NCBI RefSeq assembly: GCF_964194155.1
Contig: NC_135898.1
Span: 13,516,001 to 13,580,000 of the forward strand
DNA: 64,000 nt
Origin: Cetorhinus maximus
Taxonomy: Eukaryota
Reading direction: 5' to 3'
Below are positions 937 through 63,407 of this stretch, piece after piece. A program made the translations under genes and the position numbers. Position 1 is the first letter of the stretch, and every line of letters begins with the position of its first letter. The notes under the pieces were generated by a model. The model made no database searches, was not told the DNA's origin, and was given only the letters and a program-made list of their open reading frames with translations.

Positions 937-3900
937 CTGCTGCATCTAGTAAAATGTTTCAGAAATTTCCTCCAGATGTGTACCATGCTTTATCCAGTGA
1001 ACCACTCACTGGGAACTTCCATGACTTTTCTATTTCTGTGAAGGTAGTATTTTTCATGTTGTTCAGTGTGTCATTGTGTGCATTGCAATCAGCAGAGAGG
1101 ATGTGAAGTTGCCTGAGAATGAGGTTCAATAAAGGTTGACTAGATTAATTCCAGGGATGAGAGGGTTGGCTATGAGGAGAGATTGAGCATAAAGAGCTGA
1201 TAGTCTCCTGCGTTTAGAAGAGTGAGAGTGGATTTTTGATAGGGTGGATAACAATTTTCTTTGGGAAATTATTCATTTGACAAAGGGTGTCATTGAGAGA
1301 AGGTTGAGGATTGACGTTGCTAGCATAGAGGAAATGTTAGAAAGAAGAGAGATTCCAAAATAAATTGGATGGAAGCAAGTCACCAATTGTCAGACTTTTT
1401 TTTACAAAGAGAGGTGCTTGCTCCAAGATATTGGATCTACTGGAAGAGGGACGCCTTGTGTTATAATGCAAATATGGAAGACCAATATTTTCTTTGATTG
1501 CTTGTAATTACTCATCTATGGTAAAGAAGAAAATAAGTTTTGTTTAAAGAAAGGGGTATATGGGATCTATTAATGGTTGGTTGTATTATATAGTGTGCGA
1601 CCATACAGCTATAGAGTCATTATGGCACAGGAGGAGGTCATTTAGTCCATAGAGTCCATGCCAGCTTTCTATAGAGCAATCAAATCAGTCACATTCTCCT
1701 ATTCTATCCCATAGTTTATTTCCAGCAAGTGGCCATCCCGTTTTGTTTTGAAATTATTGATCATCGCCACATCCACAACCCTTGAAGTCAGAGAGCTCCA
1801 GGTCATTACCACTAGGTGCGCAAAAGAGTTCCTCCTCACATCCCCTCTACCTGCCTTGCCCAAACCCTGAAATCTGTGCCCCCTAGTTATTGTGCCGTCA
1901 GCTAATGGGTACAGCTTATCTCTATCTAGCTATCTAAGCTTTCATAAACTTATATGTCTGTCAAATGTCCCCTCACTCTCCTTTACTCCAGAGACAATAA
2001 CTCCAACTGCTCCAGTGTAGCTAAAACCCCTCATCCCTGGAACCATTCTGGTAAATCTCCTCTCCACCATCGCAAGCCCTTTGCATCCTTACTAAAGTGT
2101 GATGACCAGAACTGGACACAATATTCTAGTTGTGGCTTAATCAGAATTTTATAAAGGTTCATTTTTCTGAAATAGATAATGAAAAAATATATATAATTTT
2201 GTTTGTTTTCGATTAGTTTGAAAGAATGTTCTTGTGTTTTCAAAACTTGTAATTTAAAGAAAAGAGGGGAATCTGTCAATGCCTTATCAATTACATTGTT
2301 AAGAAAAACAGATCATGGGTATTTGAACACAACAATTAATTAGGGATAGCTGGGACACTGGGTGTATGTGATGAGTGTTGACACTGAACAAAGTCAGTAA
2401 ACTCAGCAAGGAAAGGCTCTGTGTCTTAGTTTTGACTTCACCAACTGGCATAGATCCCATTAACAGATGCTGAGAGTCTGTTTCCCCTAGCTGGAGAGTC
2501 TAGTTGGCTTAGTCTGAGGACAAGAAGTCGACCATTAAATCTCTTCATTCACTTCTTCACATTCAGGGTTGTGAAGCTTGGAATTTTTTAAAGTTCATTC
2601 ATGGGATGTAGGTGTCGCTCACTCAGCCAACATTTATTGCCCATCCCTAATTGCCCTTGGGAAAGTCATGGTGAGCTGCCTCCTTGAACCCCTGCAATCC
2701 ATGTGGTATAGGTACACCCACAGTGCTATTAGGGAGGGAGTTTGACCCAGCGACAGTGAAGGAACAGTGATACACTTCCAAGTCAGGATGGTGAGTGGCA
2801 TGGAGGGGAACTTGCAGGTGGTGGTGTTCCCATAGATCTGCTGCCCTTGTCCTAGAAGGTAGTGGCTGTGGGTTTGGAAGGTGCTGTCTAAGGAAGCTTG
2901 GTGAGTTCCTGCAGTGCATCTTGTAGATGGTTGCCACTGTGCGTTGGTGGTGGAGGGAGGGAATGTTTGTGGACGAATCAAGTGAGCTGCTTTGTCCTGG
3001 ATGGTGTCAAGCATCTTGTGTGTTGTTGGAGCTGCATTCATCCAGGCAAGTGGAGAGTATTCCATCACACTCATGACTTGTGCCTTGTAGATGGTGGACA
3101 GGCTTTGGGGAGTCAGGAGGTGAGTTACTTGCCGCAGCATTCCTAGCCTCTGACCTGCTCTTGTAGCCACAGTATTTATGTGGCTAGTCCAGTTCAGCTT
3201 CTGGTCATTGGTACCCCTAGGATGTTGATAGTGGAGGACTCAAGATTGTGTACTTTAGAGGGCTGTTGAACTCAGTCAGTGAGTGTGTTCAAGGTGAGAT
3301 CTACAGATTTTTAGGGAACTGAGCAATAAGGAGATAATACGAAAAAGTGGAGTTGTGATTGAAGATTGGCCATACTCCTGCTCCAATTTCTTAGGCTCTT
3401 TTGCATTGGTAAGTGAGACAGGACATGTAATTATACCAGCCCATGATCTGTATTTGTGTACAACTCATTGCTTTACTTACAGGGGAGTTAGATTTTGTAG
3501 AACATTATTCACGCACCCCAGCATCACTGAGGACAGGAGGGGAAAAAAACTGTGTGGGTTGAAAAGAGAAGATTGCAATCATGTCCTGCATCAGTCAGTG
3601 AATGACTAGATAGAACAGGTTATTTTTCCACTTCTGAGTTAGTGGTGAGGAAGACCATTTAGCCCATTTAAATTTATCCATCTAGAAAGAACATAAAGCC
3701 CCTCCACCGCTGCAATTTCTTCCCTTTATTTACATTGTAATTTGATTGCTCTTTTATTTGGCAGGCGTTTCTGGAAGATGAGAAACTGAGTAAATTCTAT
3801 TCAATCCTGTCCACCAATAATGACAGAAAGGGTGTGGAGTTTGTATCTACTATGGAGGGTAGGTTGAACAGTGTGACTGCTATTGTACAATTAACATAAC

Positions 3901-13376: not shown

Positions 13377-14488
13377 AACCCTGAAAGATTTGCCCTTGCT
13401 TAGTCCAAAGTCCCTGAAGCCAGTTGTAGTGCAACCTATTGCCTTCCTGGTTGGAATCAGGGAACTCAACACAGATCGCAAGTGGAGGCTGGTACTATCA
13501 AGTCTCTACGAGCCATTACCATAATCTTCAACCATCTGGGAAGCTTCATAACTCGGCTTTAATCACAGCTGTTAAGCTAAATATTAATAGATGTTTCATC
13601 ACAGTGACAAGTTCCAGCATTGCCTCTGATGAAAGTGGAATTATGGAGCTTTTACAGCTGTCCTATTTACTGTACATGCTACATAAATATTGCACTCATA
13701 TATATATATATATGTATATAGAACACAACCGTACCTGTATATATACACAGACGAAATGTCCCACGTAGATCTTGCATGTCTTTGCTGCATTGAGCTGTAA
13801 TCGTGCCATAAACATTTGGCCATTTCTAGACACAGAGATCACAAGATAGATACGGATGTGAAACTCTTCTATGTAGAAAGTACCTGCAACTCCTTTTTAG
13901 AGCAAACTACCTTATCCTGCACAACTGAATGTCTCTCCACCTGTGATCACTCAATGTGTAAAAATCTGTGTGAAAGATGGCCCTCACAACACATGTTTCA
14001 TCATATGTTTGCAGAGTAGAGCACCACGTACAATTGTAGAGTATGTGTATACTTGATGTAGCACAGTGTCTGGATAGAATGTGTAATACTGTGTAAAGGC
14101 ACAGGTTCAACACTGTACTGACAGGATACAGAACTAATTCAATCAAGCGAGCTCGAGGAGCAACCATTCATTGAAATAAAAACAAAGTGGTGGAAATACG
14201 CAGAAAATATGGCAGAATCTCGGGAGAAAAGTAGATTTGATATTCAGGTCTGTGATCTTTCATTGGGACCCAATACATGGAAAAAGAAGTAGGTTGTAAT
14301 GAATGGCATAAAGTTAAAATGCTCAGAGAGCAGGTGCAGACACGTTGAGCCGAATGGCCTCCTTCTACACCATAGAAATTCTGTGACTCTGTAGTAGAAG
14401 GGTCTGGCATATGTGGGCTAATATGGGACTGAGTATTATACCACCTACACAGTGATGTAAGACAGCACATAACCAAGACTCTACAACT

Positions 14489-14498
14489 TGGTGGCAGC
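14489..14498 (+). promoter_or_regulatory. Primer binding site complementary to the tRNA-Leu 3' end
   Basis: TGGTGGCAGC immediately after the 5' LTR is the reverse complement of GCUGCCACCA, the 3' end of vertebrate tRNA-Leu(AAG/UAG). Confidence 0.7.
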
Positions 14499-15789
14499 TT
14501 GAGGAAAAACCCAAAACTTTGCAGAACATGCAGAGAAAAACTAAAATTCTGGAAGACTTAGAAAAGGTTCAGCAAAGCAGTCGTACCTGAAAAGATACTC
14601 CAGAAGCACAGGCGCAGAGTAAAAATCATCAAGAAAATGCTCCAAAGAAAGGCTGGGAAGCTGAAGGCAGTGATTTAAAATTCCTTACTGCAGCAGAAGA
14701 CTCCAGTGCACCTCCTTTGGAAGTCCAGCTTCAAATCCCAGAGCACAGAGTCAGCAGACCAAGCAAGGATTTAAAATTACAGCTTGCAGCAAGTCCTGAG
14801 AAGTGTTTAAAAATGTTAGAGTCAGAAGTGCAGTTTGAAAAAGCCATCGCTAAAAACTCAATCCCCAAGTCAGCATCTGAACACGTTGTGTCCGAGCTCG
14901 CCCTGAAAAGATTTATAAATAACAAATTGAACACTCTGGGAGAATTGCAACTTTTTAAACTCGCTAAAAGCAAGGAAAAGCCAGGATTCTACGAATTTGT
15001 GACTTATACATAAATGCTGAGCAAGAGAACCTGGCAGGCAGCCTTTCTAGCCAGCCATTGTTGAAAATGTTTTCAAGCTGAAAGCATTTGCCATTGTTGC
15101 GGAGCCTGCCAAAACTGGCAAACCAAGGAAATCCCTTTGTCTCCAAGTGACCATGACGCCATCTTGAAATTCAGAAAGCCATAGCAATGGGTCCACAGCT
15201 GTCATCATAACACATAGTGGCCGAGCTCAACTGAATGGAAAAAAAATTTCTCTGATTTAGAAATCCACTAGATGGCCTTGGCTTATTGTTTTAAAGATTC
15301 CCTGCAGAGAATGAAAAGCTTAAAAAGACAGCCCCATCGGCACAACGGGAGCCCACCAAAACCTGAGCAGTGTGGCAAGAAGAAAAAAATGTTCCTCTGG
15401 AGCCATCTTGGAAGAAAAGAAAATTAAAGATATACTCAACTGTTAAGAAATATAGCCATGGATAGTAAATTAAAACTACCAGACCCAAAATTGGGCATTT
15501 TGGAAAAGAGAACTTGTATATTACGGGAGTACGTCAGGTTTAAGTCAGAAATCAGAAAAGTACAAGATAATACATTTTATACTCATTTGATGCATTTGCA
15601 AAAGATGCAAGGCATTGATGAATCCTCAACCAGCTTTGATGAGTATTTTAATCTTCAAGTTGTGGAGCACTCAGAGCTTAAAAATAGTAATAGAAAACCC
15701 CCAGTAAAGCTACGAAAGAGAAAAAGACATTACCTGAGTAAGCTACACAAGGGTGCTAGAGAGGCCAAGAACTTTCTGTAAATCCCAAA

Positions 15790-16750
15790 AATAGATCTTT
15801 TTTGGAAGCTGACCTGCAACAGCAGGTGGCAGTATGGAGCAAGCAGCTGACTGTGAATGAAGGAAAGCTATCTGATCAAGTATAAAATACATAACAAATG
15901 CTGCAAAAGGAAAATGAAATAAGGTTGGAAAACATTCGCAACAAAACTGAATTGGAAGATTTGAAACACAAAATTCAAACTCAGTATATACCTTTGAAAA
16001 TGGATGATAAACTACAGTTTTGAATAAACCAAACTGTTTGAGATCTAAAGAAACAAATTTCTGAGATTTCACAAAGGTGTCAGGAGGAAATAACAACTCT
16101 GAATTTTATTGTTGGTAAATCAAAGTGGGTTTGGGAAAACTCAACCGGAAATGCAGCCAGGGACGGCAGCAGGCAGAAAATGCATACCGAGAAGTTGCGG
16201 CCTTGAAAGACTCTTCGAGGAATCAAGACATGTCCCTGGGATAAAATTAGTATTTTTTAAAATTTGAATACGATTTCAGAAAAAGCTGCATTGTAACTTT
16301 CAGTAGTAACAAAGCAATGCTCTGAAGCGCAGAGTGATAGGGCAAGGCTGAACATGAAAATAAACTGTTGAAAGAACAGCTAACTGTCCTTCAAGATTAA
16401 ATTCAAAAACAGTACGTAATGCTTCAGCAGCATGAAGGAATAAAGACTAGATTGAACAGCAGAATGGAGGAACAGCAGAACAAGTTCAATTAAACTCTGT
16501 TAAATTACAAGAAAGCTCAAGACAAAGTAATTGTGCTTCACAAAGGAAAGGAAAACCTGATAAAGGACCTTCACATGTTACAATGATTGTTCAGATCAAA
16601 GTTTGTTCTCTGGAAAATTATGAAGTGAAGCAAAATTAATTTAATGTCACTCTGAAGGAACTGACGAACCAGTTGGCAGAGAAGACTCAGGAGTATTCTA
16701 TACTCCAGGAGGAAGCCAAGTGGGACTAGAAAGATACCACCGAGCTGAAG
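15790..16750 (+). pseudogene. Disrupted UACA-family (UACA/RAI14/ANKRD24/ANKRD35) coiled-coil fragment inside the LTR element
   Basis: Across stops and frameshifts: QTQYIPLKMDDKLQ; ENKLLKEQLTVLQD*IQKQYVMLQQHEGIK; LNYKKAQDKVIVLH; KELTNQLAEKTQEYSILQEEAK. As recalled, UACA has KNHYVPLKV; IKAEYISLAEHEAK; ANYRKGQEEIVTLH; KELKDQLSEQTQKYSVSEEEVK, in the same order. Confidence 0.7.
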
Positions 16751-17004
16751 AAACCTGCTCTGACATTTAGACATTCAGACAAAAACTCAGAAAAACATTA
16801 CATTCCCAAAGAGATATATGAAGAAATGGAAATCAAGAACCTAGACTGGCAAGAGAAAGTAGAACTTCTCACAAAAGAGCGTGAGGAGTACCAGAAACAA
16901 TTGACATAAGTGCATTTACAGAAAGTGAGCTTGAAAGATAGCGCAGAGGAATTATGCTCTACTAAAGAAAAACTGATCAGTGTAGAGAACCAACTTTCAC
17001 ATAC

Positions 17005-17560
17005 GAGTTTGCAAAGGAAAAGTGAAAACTTATGAGAACACTGGAATGTTGCTCACGGCAAGTAGAAATCCTTAAATGATGAATTTGTAGAAGCAAATTC
17101 AACTAAGATAGATCTTCATTTAAAACTTGATGAACCTAAAGCGCCAGAAGTCTCCAGTAAGCATCATGCAAAATGCCTGGAACAGGAGAAGGAGTTGCTC
17201 AATCAGCAGAAAAGTTGCTTGAAAGCAGAATTAACAATGAAAACTGATGAATTTCTTGAACTTTGGCCCAATCTGAACAACGTGAAGGCTGAGATACACA
17301 GTATGGAAGAGCAAATCCAGACTTTGAAAGCAGATAAGAGAAATTCTACAAAACAGATTGATCTAACGAGTGAATTGAAAGAGTCTGAGGAGCAGACAGT
17401 GACGACAGAAGACAGATTCTGAACAGAACTAAATGTCCAGGTGAAGTTGTCAAGTGTATATGAGTTCCGCAGATAACTATAAAACAAAGGCAACTCAGCT
17501 GACCAGAGTAGTTGCTGAGCTGAATGAAAAGATTCATAAGCTCGAAAATCAACTGGAAAA
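17005..17560 (+). pseudogene. TPR: Disrupted, intronless fragment of nucleoporin TPR N-terminal coiled coil inside the LTR element
   Basis: [95 protein letters not shown]. As recalled, TPR has [97 protein letters not shown]. Confidence 0.82.
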
Positions 17561-18469
17561 AAAGGAAGTACTCAAAAATTTGGATAAAATTGTGAAGCAA
17601 GTGGGTATGAGGGTTCCATTTTTGATACATAAGCTTCCCCATACATTGTGACAACCCACATGATGACAGAAGAAGTGAAAAAAGCGACAAGGCAACAAGC
17701 ACAATGTTCGTCCACCCAGCAAGAAATCAGCTAAGGTAGCAATCATCGACCAGCGCAACAGCCAAACCAAACAAGTGCGGTTGAACATGAAGGAATAGAA
17801 GAAAAGGATGAAAACCTATGCAGATGCAAGAACAACCTGCAAACCTACAGGAAGAGCCAGCAGCGACAGAGCCTACCACTCCAACAGTAGTGTGAACGAG
17901 ATATGGAAGGGTTATAAGGCCTTCAGACCACCTGAACCTTTAAATGCAAGAGATGTAAGGGGGGAGGCGGGGCAGTGATAATATAGCAATGACATTGTGA
18001 ATGTATGATAGGAATAATAATGTAAGGCATAAGGTAAACTATAATCATTTAAAATACATTGGATAAAGACTTGGGGGAGGTGTAGTATAAGTGTTTGGCA
18101 CATATAGGGTTAATGTGAGACTGAATACAGTACTACCCACACAGTGATATAAGAGAACACATAACCTGTACCCATGGTCAGTTGATTATTGGACAAAGGT
18201 GTGAGGACCAGCAAGCATGGAGCCAACTCCTAGCTTGTACCCTTTACTGTACATTTGTTTATATATTTCTCAGAGTCAATGAAGACTTAGGTAACCTACA
18301 TATGACTACAAAGACTTATTCAGATCTACTGCACTGTTGCCAAAACCCCACAACAACGAAGGTGAACAAAGTGGAAGAGACAAACAGAAATCTGGTCAGA
18401 GAAAAGTGCAGAACTTCCTCAAAGTGTGCATTCCTGGAAGGGAAGTGGCATTGAATTAAAAAACTATTA

Positions 18470-38319: not shown

Positions 38320-39723
38320 TGTAAAAATATACTTTATTCATAAAATATCTTCAATCACATTCAAAACCATTTCAAAAACAACATTACAAGGGTACAATCC
38401 AGGTTAAACTTTTACAAAATGTATCACCAGGTGCATCAGTACAAACAATATTACAATCATTTACAGCCTTTCATTTTGATCTGTACAGCCCGAGGGGCTC
38501 TAAACAGTTCCCAGTCTCTCGGTGCGCTGTGGTAGAAAGGTCTTAGACAGCTACCCTTCCCCATTGCGCCTTTGAAGCAGCTGCCCCAAGCTTTAGTGCG
38601 TCCCTCAGCACGTAGTCCTGGACTTTGGATTGTGCCAGTCCGCAACAATCGGTCGGGGACAACTCTTTGTGCTGGAAGACCAACAAGTTTCGGGCAGACC
38701 AAAGCGCGTCTTTCACCGAGTTGATGATCCTCCAGCTGCAGTCGATGTTTGTCTCGGTGTGTGTCCCTGGGAACAGCCCGTAGAGCACAGAGTCCTGTGT
38801 CACAGAACTGCTCGGGATGAACCTCGACAGCAACCACTGCATCTCTCTCCAGACTTTCTTTGCAAAGGCACAATCCACAAGGAGGTGAACAACGGTCTCT
38901 TCCCCACCACAGCCACCTCGAGGGCAACGTGCAGAGGGGGTGAGCCTCCTGGCGTGTAGGAAGGATCTGACGGGGAGGGCCTTTCTCACCACCAGCCAAG
39001 CTACGTCTTGGTGCTTGTTGGAAAGTTCTGGCGATGAGGCATTCTGCCAAATGACTTTGACAGTCTGCTCGGGGAACCATCCCACAGGGTCCACCCTCTC
39101 CTTTTCCCTCAGGGCCTCTAGGACATTACGTGCTGACCACTGCCTGATGGACTTGTGGTCAAAGGTGTTTTTCTGCATCAATTTTTCCAACAGGGACAGG
39201 TGGTACGGCACGGTCCAACTACTTGGAGCGTTCCGCGGCAGCGTGGCCAGACCCATCCTTCGCAACACCGGGGACAGGTAGAACCTCAGCACGTAGTGAC
39301 ACTTGGTGTTTGCGTACTGAGGGTCTACGCACCGCTTGATGCAGCCACACACAAAGGTGGCCATCAGTATGAGGGCGATGTTGGGCACGTTTTTTCCCCC
39401 TTTATCTAGAGGCTTGTACATCGCGTCCCTGCGGACACGATCCATTTTCGACCTCCAGATAAAGCGGAAGATGGCTCGAGTGATCGCCATCGCGCAGGAG
39501 TGTGGAATGGGCCAGACCTGCGCCACGTACAGCAACAGCGAGAGTACCTCACACCTGATGACCAGGTTCTTACCCGCAATGGAGAGGGAGCGTCGCTCCC
39601 ACATGCCCAGTTTCCTTTTCACCATAGCCACTCGCTCCTTCCAGTTTCTAACGCATGCCCCGGTCCCTCCGAACCATATCCCCAGCACCTTCAGGCCGTC
39701 AGCCCTGACAGTGAAGGGGACAT
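38320..39723 (-). mobile_element. Tx1-like (L1-group) non-LTR retrotransposon, 5'-truncated, with an uninterrupted ORF2 C-terminus
   Basis: Open frame 38543-39727: KVLGIWFG..WERRSLSIAGKNLVI..KGGKNVPNI..CPRGGCGGEETVVHLLVDC (CCHC zf-RVT). 3' UTR with AATAAA and an A tail at ~38310-38340. Confidence 0.88.
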
Positions 39724-40570
39724 TCATTTCAATGTTGACATTACATAAAGTGCAAACAGATTAATTTCCTTCAATACAGTATGTGGCACTCTGAGGTGCC
39801 TCCCTACACTTTACAATTACAAGTTCAATTTCATATCAAGCATACAGCCTGAGCGGTTTTTAGTTTCCAGCCCCTCGGTGTACTACGGCAGAAGTGCCTG
39901 AGACAGTGAGTGGCCTTTCCCCACTGAGCCTTTGTGGCAGCTGCCCCGGCCCTTTGTGTGTCCCTCAGCGCACCATCTGGGACTTTGAAATGTGCACGTC
40001 TGTGGCACTCAGCTGTTGACAGCTCTTTGCTTGGATGACCAGAAAGTTTCGGGTAGACCAACGAGGCTCTTTCACTGAGCCAGTGATCCTCCAGCAGCAG
40101 TTGCATCCCAATTTCCTTCACCCTCAGCTGCCTAAACTCTGAAATTCCCTCCCAGTTTTCCACCTCTTTCTCAGTGCTCCTTTTGAAAAAGCTTTTGGTC
40201 ATGCGCCCTTATATCTCCTTATGTAGCTTAATATCAAATTTTTGTCTAATTATTGTCCTGGGGCATATTATTACATTAAAGGTGCTGCTGTATTCCAATG
40301 CCAGTTGCCTGGGTTGTGCAGGACAAGCAGCATGGACCCTTTAAAGCCAATGTGCGCTGTGGCGCACGCGCAGTATGGGCGGAATGCGACTCTCGCTTGA
40401 CTATTATTCTACGTCATCACGCACACGCATAAATATACATAATTAATTACTAAGGCTTTCGAAAATAAGATTTAGATTTTAAGAAGTCACCAAACCAAAA
40501 GAAACCGCAAGAGAACCAAGTGAACGCGTCCCTACCAGAGGACGCCAAGGAAATGGGGACATGTTTTGGT

Positions 40571-59400: not shown

Positions 59401-62400
59401 ACCAACAGTAAACACATCAACTGACCCTGAACGTACTGGGATCGTAAACATGGAGCTTCCTGGTGGTCTGTGACTCAGTTGCATTACTGGGTGGTGCATA
59501 GAATCACTGAGCAATGGTGAAGCATTCCATGTGTCAGAAAAGTGTGAGGTGACAGGAATGCACTGCAAACATGGTGGGCACCACAGGGACTAGTGTAATC
59601 TAAAAATGACACTGCCAATTCAAATACAGCAGTTCTAACCTCTCAGTGAAGATGGGCAGATGCTTGGCATACACTCGTCGCAGAGGGATTTTGTCTTCAA
59701 CCTCCATGTGGGTAAGAATTAGGCAGAATACTTTGTCGTAGCGATTTGCTCTCTGTTGTCCGCGGGTGACGTGTGATTTCTCCAGAAGTGGGAGCAGGTC
59801 AAGTAAGCAGGGCAGCACAGTCTGAAATAGAGAAGGAAGCAGCAGTTATTAGTAACATCAGAGGTCACGCTGCCACTTTCACTGCAAATCCAGAACTGAG
59901 GATGTGCGAATTAAACAGAAAACACAGAACAGTGGAATTACTTAGCACAGGTCGACGACCTGTTGAGAGAACGAGTCTCCAGGGTGACTCGAGCAATGAC
60001 GTTCTGTTGAAATGTGGCTGTAAAGACTGTTAGTCAGATGAAGGTACAGTTTACAAACTGTCTGCCAGTGCAGGCCTTGGGTTAACAGGATGGATCAGTG
60101 ACAAGTCCCGGATCAGTGACAAGTCCCGGATCTGTAATGACAGCTACATTCAGAGGGGAAGAGGACAAGAATGAGGCAGGATTACTCTCGCCAATCTTTA
60201 CTGACCAACATAAATCAAAACGAGTGCTGAACATGGGGAAAACCATGAACGTGAAGTGACAAAATAGTTTAGTCCTTCTACCATGTGGCTCTGCTCATGA
60301 ATCACACAACAGTTCATCACCTGCAGGGCTCAAGAGTCACGGTCTTGTTTCTCTCCTGTACAAACTAACAGATATTAGGGAAGATTTAGAAATTTTGAAC
60401 CTGTAACTGCTGCCTTAAAATTAATGTGGCATATTAAGAGAATTGGAGTCAAACTCCCTGGAGGACACAGAAGGAGAGCACAACTCACCTGAATGAGCGA
60501 AACTTCTGGAGTGTACAAGTGATTGTAGAGAGCGTGGTACACTACCTGCGCTCGGTTATACTGTAAGAGTTCTGCAGCAGGCTGAAACAAGAGAACATGA
60601 AGCTGTCAGACACGGACACATTCAAACCCTTCCAATCTGGTGTACCAACACAGAACACACACATTTTTGAGGAACAGGAAAACTATTGGGCCCAACCATG
60701 TCCTTTTTAATAGACCCACCTTCTCATCATTGTCCTCAATCTCTTCACACTCCAGCAGTAAAAATAATTGTCTCCTGAGCTCATACTTACTGTCCACTGG
60801 AATAACTCCCTACCCAACCCCCAGCATCACATCAATTTTGATTAATAGTTTATGTCTCATTGGTGAAAAGAACATTCCTTCAGTTTAGGAAAGAAAGAAC
60901 TGTTATTTATACAGCATCTTAAAACATGTCAAGGTGCTTCATATCCAATTAATCTTTTGAAGTGTCATTGCTGTTCTGTCGGTAAACACAGCAGAGGATG
61001 TTCGTACAGCAAACTCCCACAAACACCGAATAAGACGACTATTGGCCTGGACACTGGGAGAACTCATTCTTCACATTGTACTGTGGAATCTCTCACATCC
61101 ACAGGAAAATTTGGAACAGACATGTTTCACACTTTGTCACAAACTCAGGCAGACTTGTCTGCAATTTGCCATCTACGTGATTTCTCCCCACCTCATGGTT
61201 CCCACTCTCCGGCCTCCACGTACCACATTGTTAATGATGTGCTGGAGACACCTCACGCCCAGTATCTTATTCTCTGTCCTGTAGTCGTCTGAGAAGAGGA
61301 GGGATGGTGGCAGCACTACGTCCAGGTGCTCAGCCAGCCACGGCCTCCTCACCCTCTGCAGCAACCACCGAAATACATGTTTTGTGGCTGGATTCAACTT
61401 CCACGTGTTTCTGTAGAAATTTGCACACACAAATCAGTTACTGGCACTCTGTTAAAAATTGGGTTAAAAAACACAAAAAAAAGAGTGCAGTGACATGACA
61501 CACCAACTGGTGAGAAAATCTTAGCTGGAGGAGAGAGCTGTGTGCATTTCCTGCTGGGAGCATGGGATATACTGAGTTCCAGCTACAACATGATATAGAC
61601 TGAACACAGCTCAGCACAGAATGACACAGTATAGAGGCTACCTGTAGTGGGATAAATTTTCTCTTATTTGATCCCCCTCTTCCTTCCAGTTGAAGTGAAT
61701 TACAATGTCTAGCAAAGGGAGGGGACCACCTGGTCAAACAGCGGGAATGACAAATAATCAAACACTGGTTCAGACTCACTTGTTCATTTGTGGTTTCATC
61801 AGATGCAGCACAGCTCCCAGGACTCCCCTGCCTTCCTCTTCTGCCCCACACAGGAGCTCCGTGATGGTCTTGCACCCCGCTGCCTGCACTGAGGCTGCCA
61901 GCAGCTCATCTGCAGCAAGCCGAGATGCCGCACTGGTCCATGCTTTCTCCTGGCAGTGTGTGGCGCAGAAAATAACCAGATGCGGCAAAATGGCTCTCAG
62001 AACAGAGTCTGGCGAAATAGTGGGGTGGTGAGTTGTTGCTTGCTCTGGCCTTGCTGATAGTTTACTGAGGAGAGGTTGAAACGTTTGGGCCACATTGCAG
62101 GCCCTCTCGGGTATCATGTGATAAGCACTGTCAGGCAGCTCGCCACTGTCAGTCTCACATATGGGCAGTGCTGAGTACTGGGTCAGAGCGGCTGTCAGAT
62201 TAACGTACATTTGAACGATATCTGACACATCGTTTTGGCAGCAGCTGAGAAGCCAGAGAGGGTCGCCCTGTAGAAACAAATCCCTTGCATCGTCCAAAAC
62301 TGATCCTTTGTGCCTCGTTAGTTTCTCATTTGACATGTCCCCCAGAATTTTCCTTAGAACATGCTGGACTGTTGGTACTTGCTCCCTTTGATAACCAAAC

Positions 62401-62465
62401 TCTTCTACCGACTTGCTTTTGCCTGCCAGGTGCAGTTTCTGAATGATTTCTGAAGGATCTTCCAT
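56429..62465 (-). CDS. TTI2: TELO2-interacting protein 2 (TTT complex subunit, 511 aa)
   Basis: Coding exons (minus) 62465-61780, 61410-61224, 60581-60489, 59821-59640, 58980-58837, 58744-58582 and 56509-56429 total 1536 nt, all GT-AG and in phase. Peptides WKLNPATKHVFRW, LPPSLLFSDDYRTENKILGVRCLQHI, PAAELLQYNRAQVVYHAL, RLGILVVRHLKRLQRVILGYLEVYDGPEE. Convergent with MAK16. Confidence 0.95.
56670..58174 (-). mobile_element. Penelope-like element: 5'-truncated, GIY-YIG domain, inverted terminal repeats, 13-bp TSD
   Basis: FLNRGFPPTVVDRAL, CNRRRCNTC and LVYCIRCS*CGFLHIGETKRSLSDRFAEH (GIY-YIG). 56670-56790 is inverted relative to 58020-58140. CCTTAAAAACCCA at 56657-56669 and 58175-58187. Confidence 0.88.
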
Positions 62466-63407
62466 GATACCTTTTCGTTGGCTTGGTCCACAATCAGAAA
62501 TTCATACTTAGCCTGGGGAAAAAACAGCAATTTTTTTTTGTACTCAAGGCAGTTTGTACCAAGCACCAGCAGAGCGCATATACCAGACTACAGACACCGG
62601 AGCAGATGTTTCAACTAAGCAGCCGAACATCTCTGCAAAACAAAGCAGATTGTCAAAGTGTTTAAGGACTACAACTTAGAGGGAAAAGTTGACCCTTGGT
62701 CACTTCTCAGGTCGCAGAGTACATCTGTTACATTAATTACCTGATTTATTTCAATCCTGGTTTAGCATAAATTCAGAACCAACAGTTTATCAGAACAGCA
62801 GAAATCTTATGTCCCAGCACATTTATGTAAAAACCTTTGGTGTATTACAGTGGCAGGAATCTAGTTTTGAAACTGAAGCCCTGTAACGTAACACAACTAG
62901 TAAGCCACTGAATAAAGAAATGTGGTTTTTAAAATCTGAAGCACACTCTGGATCTTTCCACGTCCCTGAACAGATTTGAGATTCCCTGTCTCGGTTGAGT
63001 CAGGAGTTGACAAGACGACGACAGGCCGGGAAGGCCATCTTAGCTCACCCGTCCTGCAAATCCCACAGCCTTTCTCAGTGTTGCATCCCAGTCCAGGGAC
63101 TCCAGGGATTTCTCCCTCCTCCTCCCACATCACAGGATCAGAGAAACCTACATTCAGCTCATGCTCCAACATCTCTCACCCCCCCACCCCCCCCACCCAG
63201 TCAAAGCCCAATTGATGGAAAGTTAAAAGTTAAGGAAAAATCGCAAATGTTGCGGGGGGAGGTGCACAGACTAGAAGGGCCGAATGGCCTGTTTTCTGTG
63301 CTGTAATGTTCTATGGTTCTAAATGGACAGCAGCTGCATTCAGCATCCAGAAGAGAAACGAGGCGGTGAAACCTGCCTTTTCTCTGTCCGGGCTGTGCAT
63401 TTCCAGC

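Follow-up and report, generated by a model that had tools for sequence, protein, structure and literature searches.

What put host genes into the long terminal repeat (LTR) retroelement at 14390-18355 of the window, i.e., the 64,000-nt stretch of the 4-Gb genome of the shark Cetorhinus maximus analysed here (C21, contig NC_135898.1, positions 13,516,001 to 13,580,000), and was the product ever kept as a gene? A first-pass annotation had described LTRs, a primer-binding site (PBS) and a polypurine tract (PPT) around an interior chimera of UACA-like and TPR segments. The locus is a defunct member of a non-autonomous Gypsy LTR retrotransposon family, in which three unrelated donors (UACA, ninein and TPR) lie in one element. 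Probably, gag-pol gave way to an in-frame fusion, led by a Gag stub and continued by UACA, ninein and TPR pieces, that arose by serial template-switch capture, was copied by helper elements and had its frame kept open by selection. The LTR-PBS-interior-PPT-LTR layout was borne out (the 5' LTR of the window copy is internally deleted), and the A/G-rich sense interior between PBS and PPT reads, in order, Gag N-terminus (~80 amino acids, aa), linker, UACA, ninein, TPR and an integrase-tail remnant; the Gag N-terminus (15458 to ~15700) and the existence of three LTR types had been missed.

The identities of the UACA and TPR segments proved specific at the protein and DNA levels, including in composition-adjusted searches, and only their bounds (~15790-16750 and ~17005-17560) were off, by ~60-90 nt (Table 1). 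The UACA piece falls within one large host exon at 74-78% DNA identity and scored E 4e-46 in tblastn with composition adjustment, while a sister-copy open reading frame (ORF) matched shark UACA at E 1e-62, with 15 of 15 matches being UACA (the host and white-shark UACA proteins share 95% identity). The TPR piece matched Pfam PF25481 at 32.4 bits (cut-off 27) and whale-shark TPR at E 2e-27, and nine exon pieces of the host TPR gene, on C18, matched in order. Aligned to the spliced host coding sequence (CDS), the window copy covers nt 292-932, then nt 1008-1067 and 1244-1318; the first of these alignments spans six exon junctions, at which the host introns measure 740-7492 nt, and none of 11 TPR introns matched the window copy. 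Because six junctions are crossed without intron DNA, this piece came from spliced mRNA; the UACA piece and the ninein piece each sit inside a single large exon, so that the earlier claim of mRNA capture is borne out for TPR. The proposal that at least two cellular mRNAs had been captured was supported and incomplete, as it lacked ninein: the spacer of longer copies has sawshark ninein as its sole match (E 1e-27), and a host exon on C19 matches at 79-81% DNA identity (E 3e-20), covering window 16849-16953.

The same interior accompanies LTRs in many dispersed copies, as had been proposed. All 10 extended loci were collinear with the window interior, nine of them with LTR sequence on both sides, and the junction-spanning ORF matched 150 of 150 scored candidates (of 9,406). 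One 18-mer gave 343 exact genome matches (its reversed control gave none) and was present in 20 of 76 sampled copies, yielding an estimate of ~1,300 copies, which is rough since the 18-mer was among the best-shared motifs tried and the sample favours high-scoring copies. When 1.84 billion protein representatives were searched with the junction-spanning ORF, seven matches were obtained, none over the whole query. That the assignments are mere coiled-coil composition matches, or that separate retrocopies landed in one dead element, is extremely improbable: the low-complexity region does draw weak coiled-coil Pfam matches, yet the DNA matches three host loci exon by exon and the same breakpoints recur in dozens of copies across many chromosomes. 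Spliced DNA matches, shared breakpoints and the 18-mer counts thus led us to reject this explanation. A practical consequence is that cassette copies give many false UACA, TPR and ninein matches in shark annotation (21,162 first-look UACA candidates). Separately, three similar copies at C4:90.28, 90.42 and 90.56 Mb, ~136 kb apart, are likely a segmental or tandem duplication, not separate insertions.

In total, 77 copies were aligned to the host sequences and 70 were grouped by deletion pattern. LTR type 1, that of the window copy, flanks the cassette in 19 of 19 group A copies besides the window and in 20 of 20 A2 copies; subfamily B has a different LTR in 16 of 17. In a mixed older group, a third LTR type was found in 6 of 13 copies, type 1 in three, type 2 in two and none in two. 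Hence, one cassette occurs in three LTR types. Deletion patterns are mosaic across the groups, which is what recombination between co-packaged RNAs would give. Subfamily B also carries a variable ~24-nt tandem repeat between the Gag stub and UACA (L084, L089, L092, L094, L100, L103).

The idea of one long chimeric coiled-coil ORF gained support at the subfamily level, where the frame looks protected and the residues much less so. In A2 (20 copies), no fixed stop interrupts 615 codons from the Gag ATG, whose column is in frame, compared with ~60 in each other frame. A column scan placed two fixed stops in A, each at a CpG column, along with an alignment slip of one column, and one fixed stop in B, whose 5' part is unalignable owing to the tandem repeats. 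Four 'stop' entries in the substitution tally are single-step classes; real stop columns number one for A and A2 together (at a CpG), one for B and two for C. Large recurrent deletions relative to the host mRNAs had modal lengths of 102 (50/67 copies), 453 (15/66), 450 (15/20), 126 (4/5), 282 (3/32), 33 (36/45), 117 (4/48), 96 (32/37) and 186 nt (31/48); these nine, and an additional 21-nt deletion shared in ninein, are all multiples of three, compared with only 46 of 123 private indels of at least 9 nt. The UACA-ninein join is in frame in 36 of 46 copies and the ninein-TPR join, which has an 8-nt overlap with an exact run of 5 nt, in 43 of 50. Using outgroup proteins, 52 element-side residue changes were counted in A. 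At dead-copy rates, these would be accompanied by 4.0 stops (P 0.018) and 3.0 frameshifts (P 0.051), whereas CpG columns aside not one has become fixed. The expectation presupposes, in a way that weakens the case, equal mutation patterns in source elements and dead copies. The same deficit test was not significant in B and C.

Several further observations weigh against the case for selection. On element-only branches, there were 57 non-synonymous to 32 synonymous changes, versus 2806 to 1185 in dead copies (p=0.20), so that relative omega is 0.75, not significant, and amino-acid constraint is weak. Among indel clusters in at least three copies, 21 of 32 shift the frame, these being either small or large deletions fused with a small neighbouring indel, and each in at most 11 copies. 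One subfamily-B column reads TGA in 11 of 17 copies, which CpG decay fits, with no linked sites. Joins over the longer B/C spacer are in frame in only 4/11, 2/9 and 4/15 copies pairwise; their column phase is held in B. Finally, microhomology favours in-frame diagonals (about 0.66), raising the chance of 10 in-frame deletions out of 10 to 0.016. Since residue constraint is weak and microhomology itself favours in-frame joins, selection for an open frame is likely, not proven. Host-versus-element omega (0.25-0.58) also contains changes on the host branch and hence was not counted as proof, and shared-versus-singleton variant ratios were dropped as evidence, being biased by recurrent transitions.

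A rival reading is that the cassette was passive cargo, i.e., packageable filler RNA whose protein is irrelevant and whose switches and deletions fall in frame through the codon-periodic microhomology of A/G-rich coiled-coil mRNAs. Purines make up 62-70% of each of the three pieces; exact repeats of 8-13 nt flank 5 of 10 deletion breakpoints (3.3 expected), with more on in-frame diagonals; relative omega is not significant; and both B, which lost most of TPR, and A2, which lost 151 UACA codons, still spread. Nevertheless, we judge this account unlikely, as it leaves unexplained the absence of fixed stops and small frameshifts after at least 52 residue changes as well as the in-frame Gag start, and 4 of the 10 deletions are in frame despite exact repeats of just 3-5 nt.

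We return to the probable reading, a selected, helper-copied chimeric frame. Cassette elements are without all pol domains and most of Gag (six segments gave no Pfam match to pol domains), and no intact copy was present among the 77 aligned or 150 scored copies. The search for an autonomous partner, carried out for LTR type 1 only, uncovered a Gypsy family with complete gag-pol whose LTR, leader and tail match those of the cassette family and which is likely its helper. All 12 integrase-bearing loci share the tail and the type-1 3' LTR (the latter only partly in some), and most share the leader, with window 14470-15179 matching copies L139, L140, L142-L144, L146, L148 and L149 at 71-82% DNA identity. 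ORF pieces of these helpers (L139-L149) match protease (weakly), reverse transcriptase, RNase H and integrase in Gypsy order. As for the pol-tail remnants reported earlier, 17813-17943, ending in TRYGRVIRPSDHLNL*, is indeed in the pol frame, and MKTYADAR lies in another.

Helper copies are ~5.1 kb long, and as their pol extends almost to the PPT, an env gene would not fit; the helper Gag resembles Retrotrans_gag clusters (score 0.96). These features do not suit an endogenous retrovirus (Retroviridae). Sister-copy ORFs match helper Gag at E 3e-14 to 1e-6 and 30-44% identity, compared with 58-63% among the helper copies themselves, and DNA similarity of the cassette to the helper ends at 15179. 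Given this divergent stub and the end of similarity there, the cassette probably predates the shell that it now occupies. The stub may correspond to the capsid N-terminal domain; the predicted fold of helper Gag was poor (pLDDT 50, pTM 0.33), and a PDB profile search returned weak ryanodine-receptor matches only. A second non-autonomous derivative with the same LTR (L031, L032, L033 and L035, at C5:97.2 Mb, C40:16.2 Mb, C19:37.9 Mb and C7:91.5 Mb) keeps gag and protease, is without reverse transcriptase or integrase core, and has window 17643-17812 in common with the cassette elements.

In the mechanism we propose, reverse-transcriptase template switching onto co-packaged mRNAs would have captured the donors one by one, and helper Gypsy proteins would have copied the cassette RNA in trans. 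Selection on source elements would have kept the frame open, mainly in cis, leaving length and residues free to drift and stops and frameshifts not tolerated. The Gag-led rod protein may have joined helper capsids and favoured packaging or survival of its own RNA; alternatively, translation may merely have shielded the RNA from decay. A cis benefit is the favoured proposal, as it would account for the variable length and the weak constraint on residues together with the lack of tolerance for stops. Through recombination into new LTR shells, the cassette could have outlived its helpers. Only tentatively do we suggest the most specific form of this account, namely an element-built gene from host centrosome and nuclear-pore scaffolds that encoded a Gag-led coiled-coil parasite of helper capsids, was trimmed in frame under selection and has moved among three LTR shells since before the lamniform radiation.

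By analogy, the coiled coils might instead have acted as a specific accessory protein, directing particles or their RNA towards the nuclear basket (TPR) or the centrosome (ninein), or as a capsid-binding multimer in the manner of Fv1 or TRIM5. Each of the three donors encodes a long coiled-coil scaffold, TPR has a host-versus-element omega of 0.19-0.31 (host branch included), and the number of residues lost, taken modulo 7, is 0, 3 or 4 for 8 of 10 deletions (p=0.02 in a post hoc test). We consider such a role quite unlikely, however, as the TPR piece has ~20% element-derived residue changes and is mostly deleted in B, and ninein is down to 35 codons in A.

The family is old. Paired LTRs average 79-83% identity, and copies lie 7.6-9.4% from their column yardstick. 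Contigs of two other species bridge the LTR-flank borders of the window insertion with ~2-5% differences, and because both carry these borders, the insertion predates the split of the three species. At UACA sites with a derived residue shared by host and white shark, the element has the old state at 18 and the new state at one (group C); since it keeps the old state, UACA was captured early on or before the host/white-shark stem. Synonymous codon differences to the host number 44/159 in TPR, 7/21 in ninein and 23/220 in UACA, i.e., ~3x as many in the first two, which suggests that TPR and ninein were captured before UACA, gene-specific rates being another possibility.

Acutely transforming retroviruses with gag-onc fusions are likewise replication-defective and helper-dependent, and their Gag stub likewise runs in frame into host sequence that has been spliced; the shark cassette differs in being Gypsy, with no env seen, in its germ-line spread, and in having three donors that are scaffolds, not signalling oncogenes. 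With Ty3/Gypsy elements it shares TG...CA LTRs, PBS, PPT, a helper order of gag, protease, reverse transcriptase, RNase H and integrase and possibly ~5-nt duplications, and it differs in the missing pol and Gag parts noted above. Maize Bs1 is reported to be low in copy number and to have an ORF that includes a gag stub. Bs1 is an LTR element with pieces of three unrelated host genes joined as a new chimeric gene (PMC13317346; PMC5131818). It resembles the cassette in having several donors in one open frame (here at subfamily level, the window copy being broken), and it differs in its plant host, in its enzyme fragments rather than coiled coils, and in being described there as a gene that is transcribed and translated and that may serve the host, whereas in the shark roughly a thousand dead copies are spread over three LTR types. 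In animals, Tan et al. 2016 (PMC5131818) describe LTR-mediated retrocopies, i.e., partial mRNAs in LTR elements with microsimilarity at switch points and secondary retroposition, including multi-gene chimeras, often in frame (one mouse case has four genes). Partial mRNAs within LTR elements, multi-gene chimerism and intron loss (TPR) are common to these and the cassette; those described there are single or few-site loci (5/7 in zebrafish, 8 in mouse), 14 of 21 older ones being broken, whereas the cassette is a genome-wide family whose frame was kept through repeated deletions.

Judged by these sources, then, the capture mechanism is already known, and what is new is the vertebrate host, the high copy number, the LTR swapping and the three coiled-coil donors. 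No account of this shark family was found in the literature searched, with subscription journals, Repbase, Dfam and supplements (e.g., the PMC5131818 locus tables) outside its scope. Multi-gene exon shuffling by an LTR element can thus succeed genome-wide in a vertebrate, with selection apparently for the element and not the host. With about a thousand dated fossils bearing nested deletions, the assembly and trimming of a chimeric gene can be followed, and the copies allow testing whether a parasite of a retrotransposon gains from a Gag-led open frame.

Table 1. Parts of the cassette element in the window
Feature	Positions	Strand	Basis
5' LTR, internally deleted (first 85 nt and last ~15 nt kept)	14390..14488	+	79% identity with 18081-18166
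Primer-binding site TGGTGGCAGC	14489..14499	+	Sequence; motif repeated after 5' LTR in many copies
Long 5' leader	14500..15457	+	14470-15179 common to gag-pol helper family
Gypsy Gag N-terminal ~80 codons, start of chimeric frame	15458..15700 (end approximate)	+	Gag matches in sister-copy ORFs
Linker without assigned donor, in frame in subfamily A2	15701..15861	+	Sister copies without Pfam match
Captured UACA coiled-coil piece (about aa 694-1051, one 102-nt deletion)	15862..16837	+	Host exon G000:C27:11440482-11443208
Captured ninein piece (271 nt in longer subfamilies)	16849..16953	+	DNA match to host exon on C19
Captured spliced TPR piece (CDS nt 292-1318; deletions of 33, 96 and 186 nt)	16946..17625	+	Pfam, protein and exon matches
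3' segment common with gag-protease-only sister elements	17643..17812	+	Chimeric frame stops near 17652
C-terminal tail of helper's integrase	17813..17943	+	Same frame as pol end in helper copies
Polypurine tract	18073..18080 (start approximate)	+	Sequence; position repeated in other copies
3' LTR, 275 nt, TG...CA	18081..18355	+	40/40 scored genome matches 81-84% or self

The window copy itself is dead, as the first-pass annotation had stated, with 9 stops in 428 aligned codons and several frameshifts. An internal deletion has cost its 5' LTR ~180 nt, the stretch 14390-14474 having 79% identity with the 3' LTR, and alignments of other copies run from 14470 past the LTR end. The motif TGGTGGCAGC is presumably a tRNA-Leu-type PBS. 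Of 16 scorable loci, helpers included, 7 had flanks duplicated over 4 or more of 5 nt; no duplication was seen at the window copy, where the tail of another repeat (14300-14389) adjoins the 5' LTR and may hide one.

No donor was found for L082:4795-4880 and the linker, both coiled-coil-like and one of them perhaps from a fourth captured gene, nor for a stretch of 82-91 nt that precedes ninein. In L074, L075 and L077 (~3340-3550), a piece that in older copies comes after UACA aa 1185-1210 is instead located upstream of UACA, reflecting a rearrangement or duplication within the cassette. Elsewhere in the window, 61779-62501 on the minus strand holds a 241-codon open frame resembling a host exon, perhaps TTI2-like, with no Pfam match, and 38460-39760, also on the minus strand, holds a long interspersed nuclear element (LINE) reverse-transcriptase remnant with a zf-RVT match (E 8e-11).

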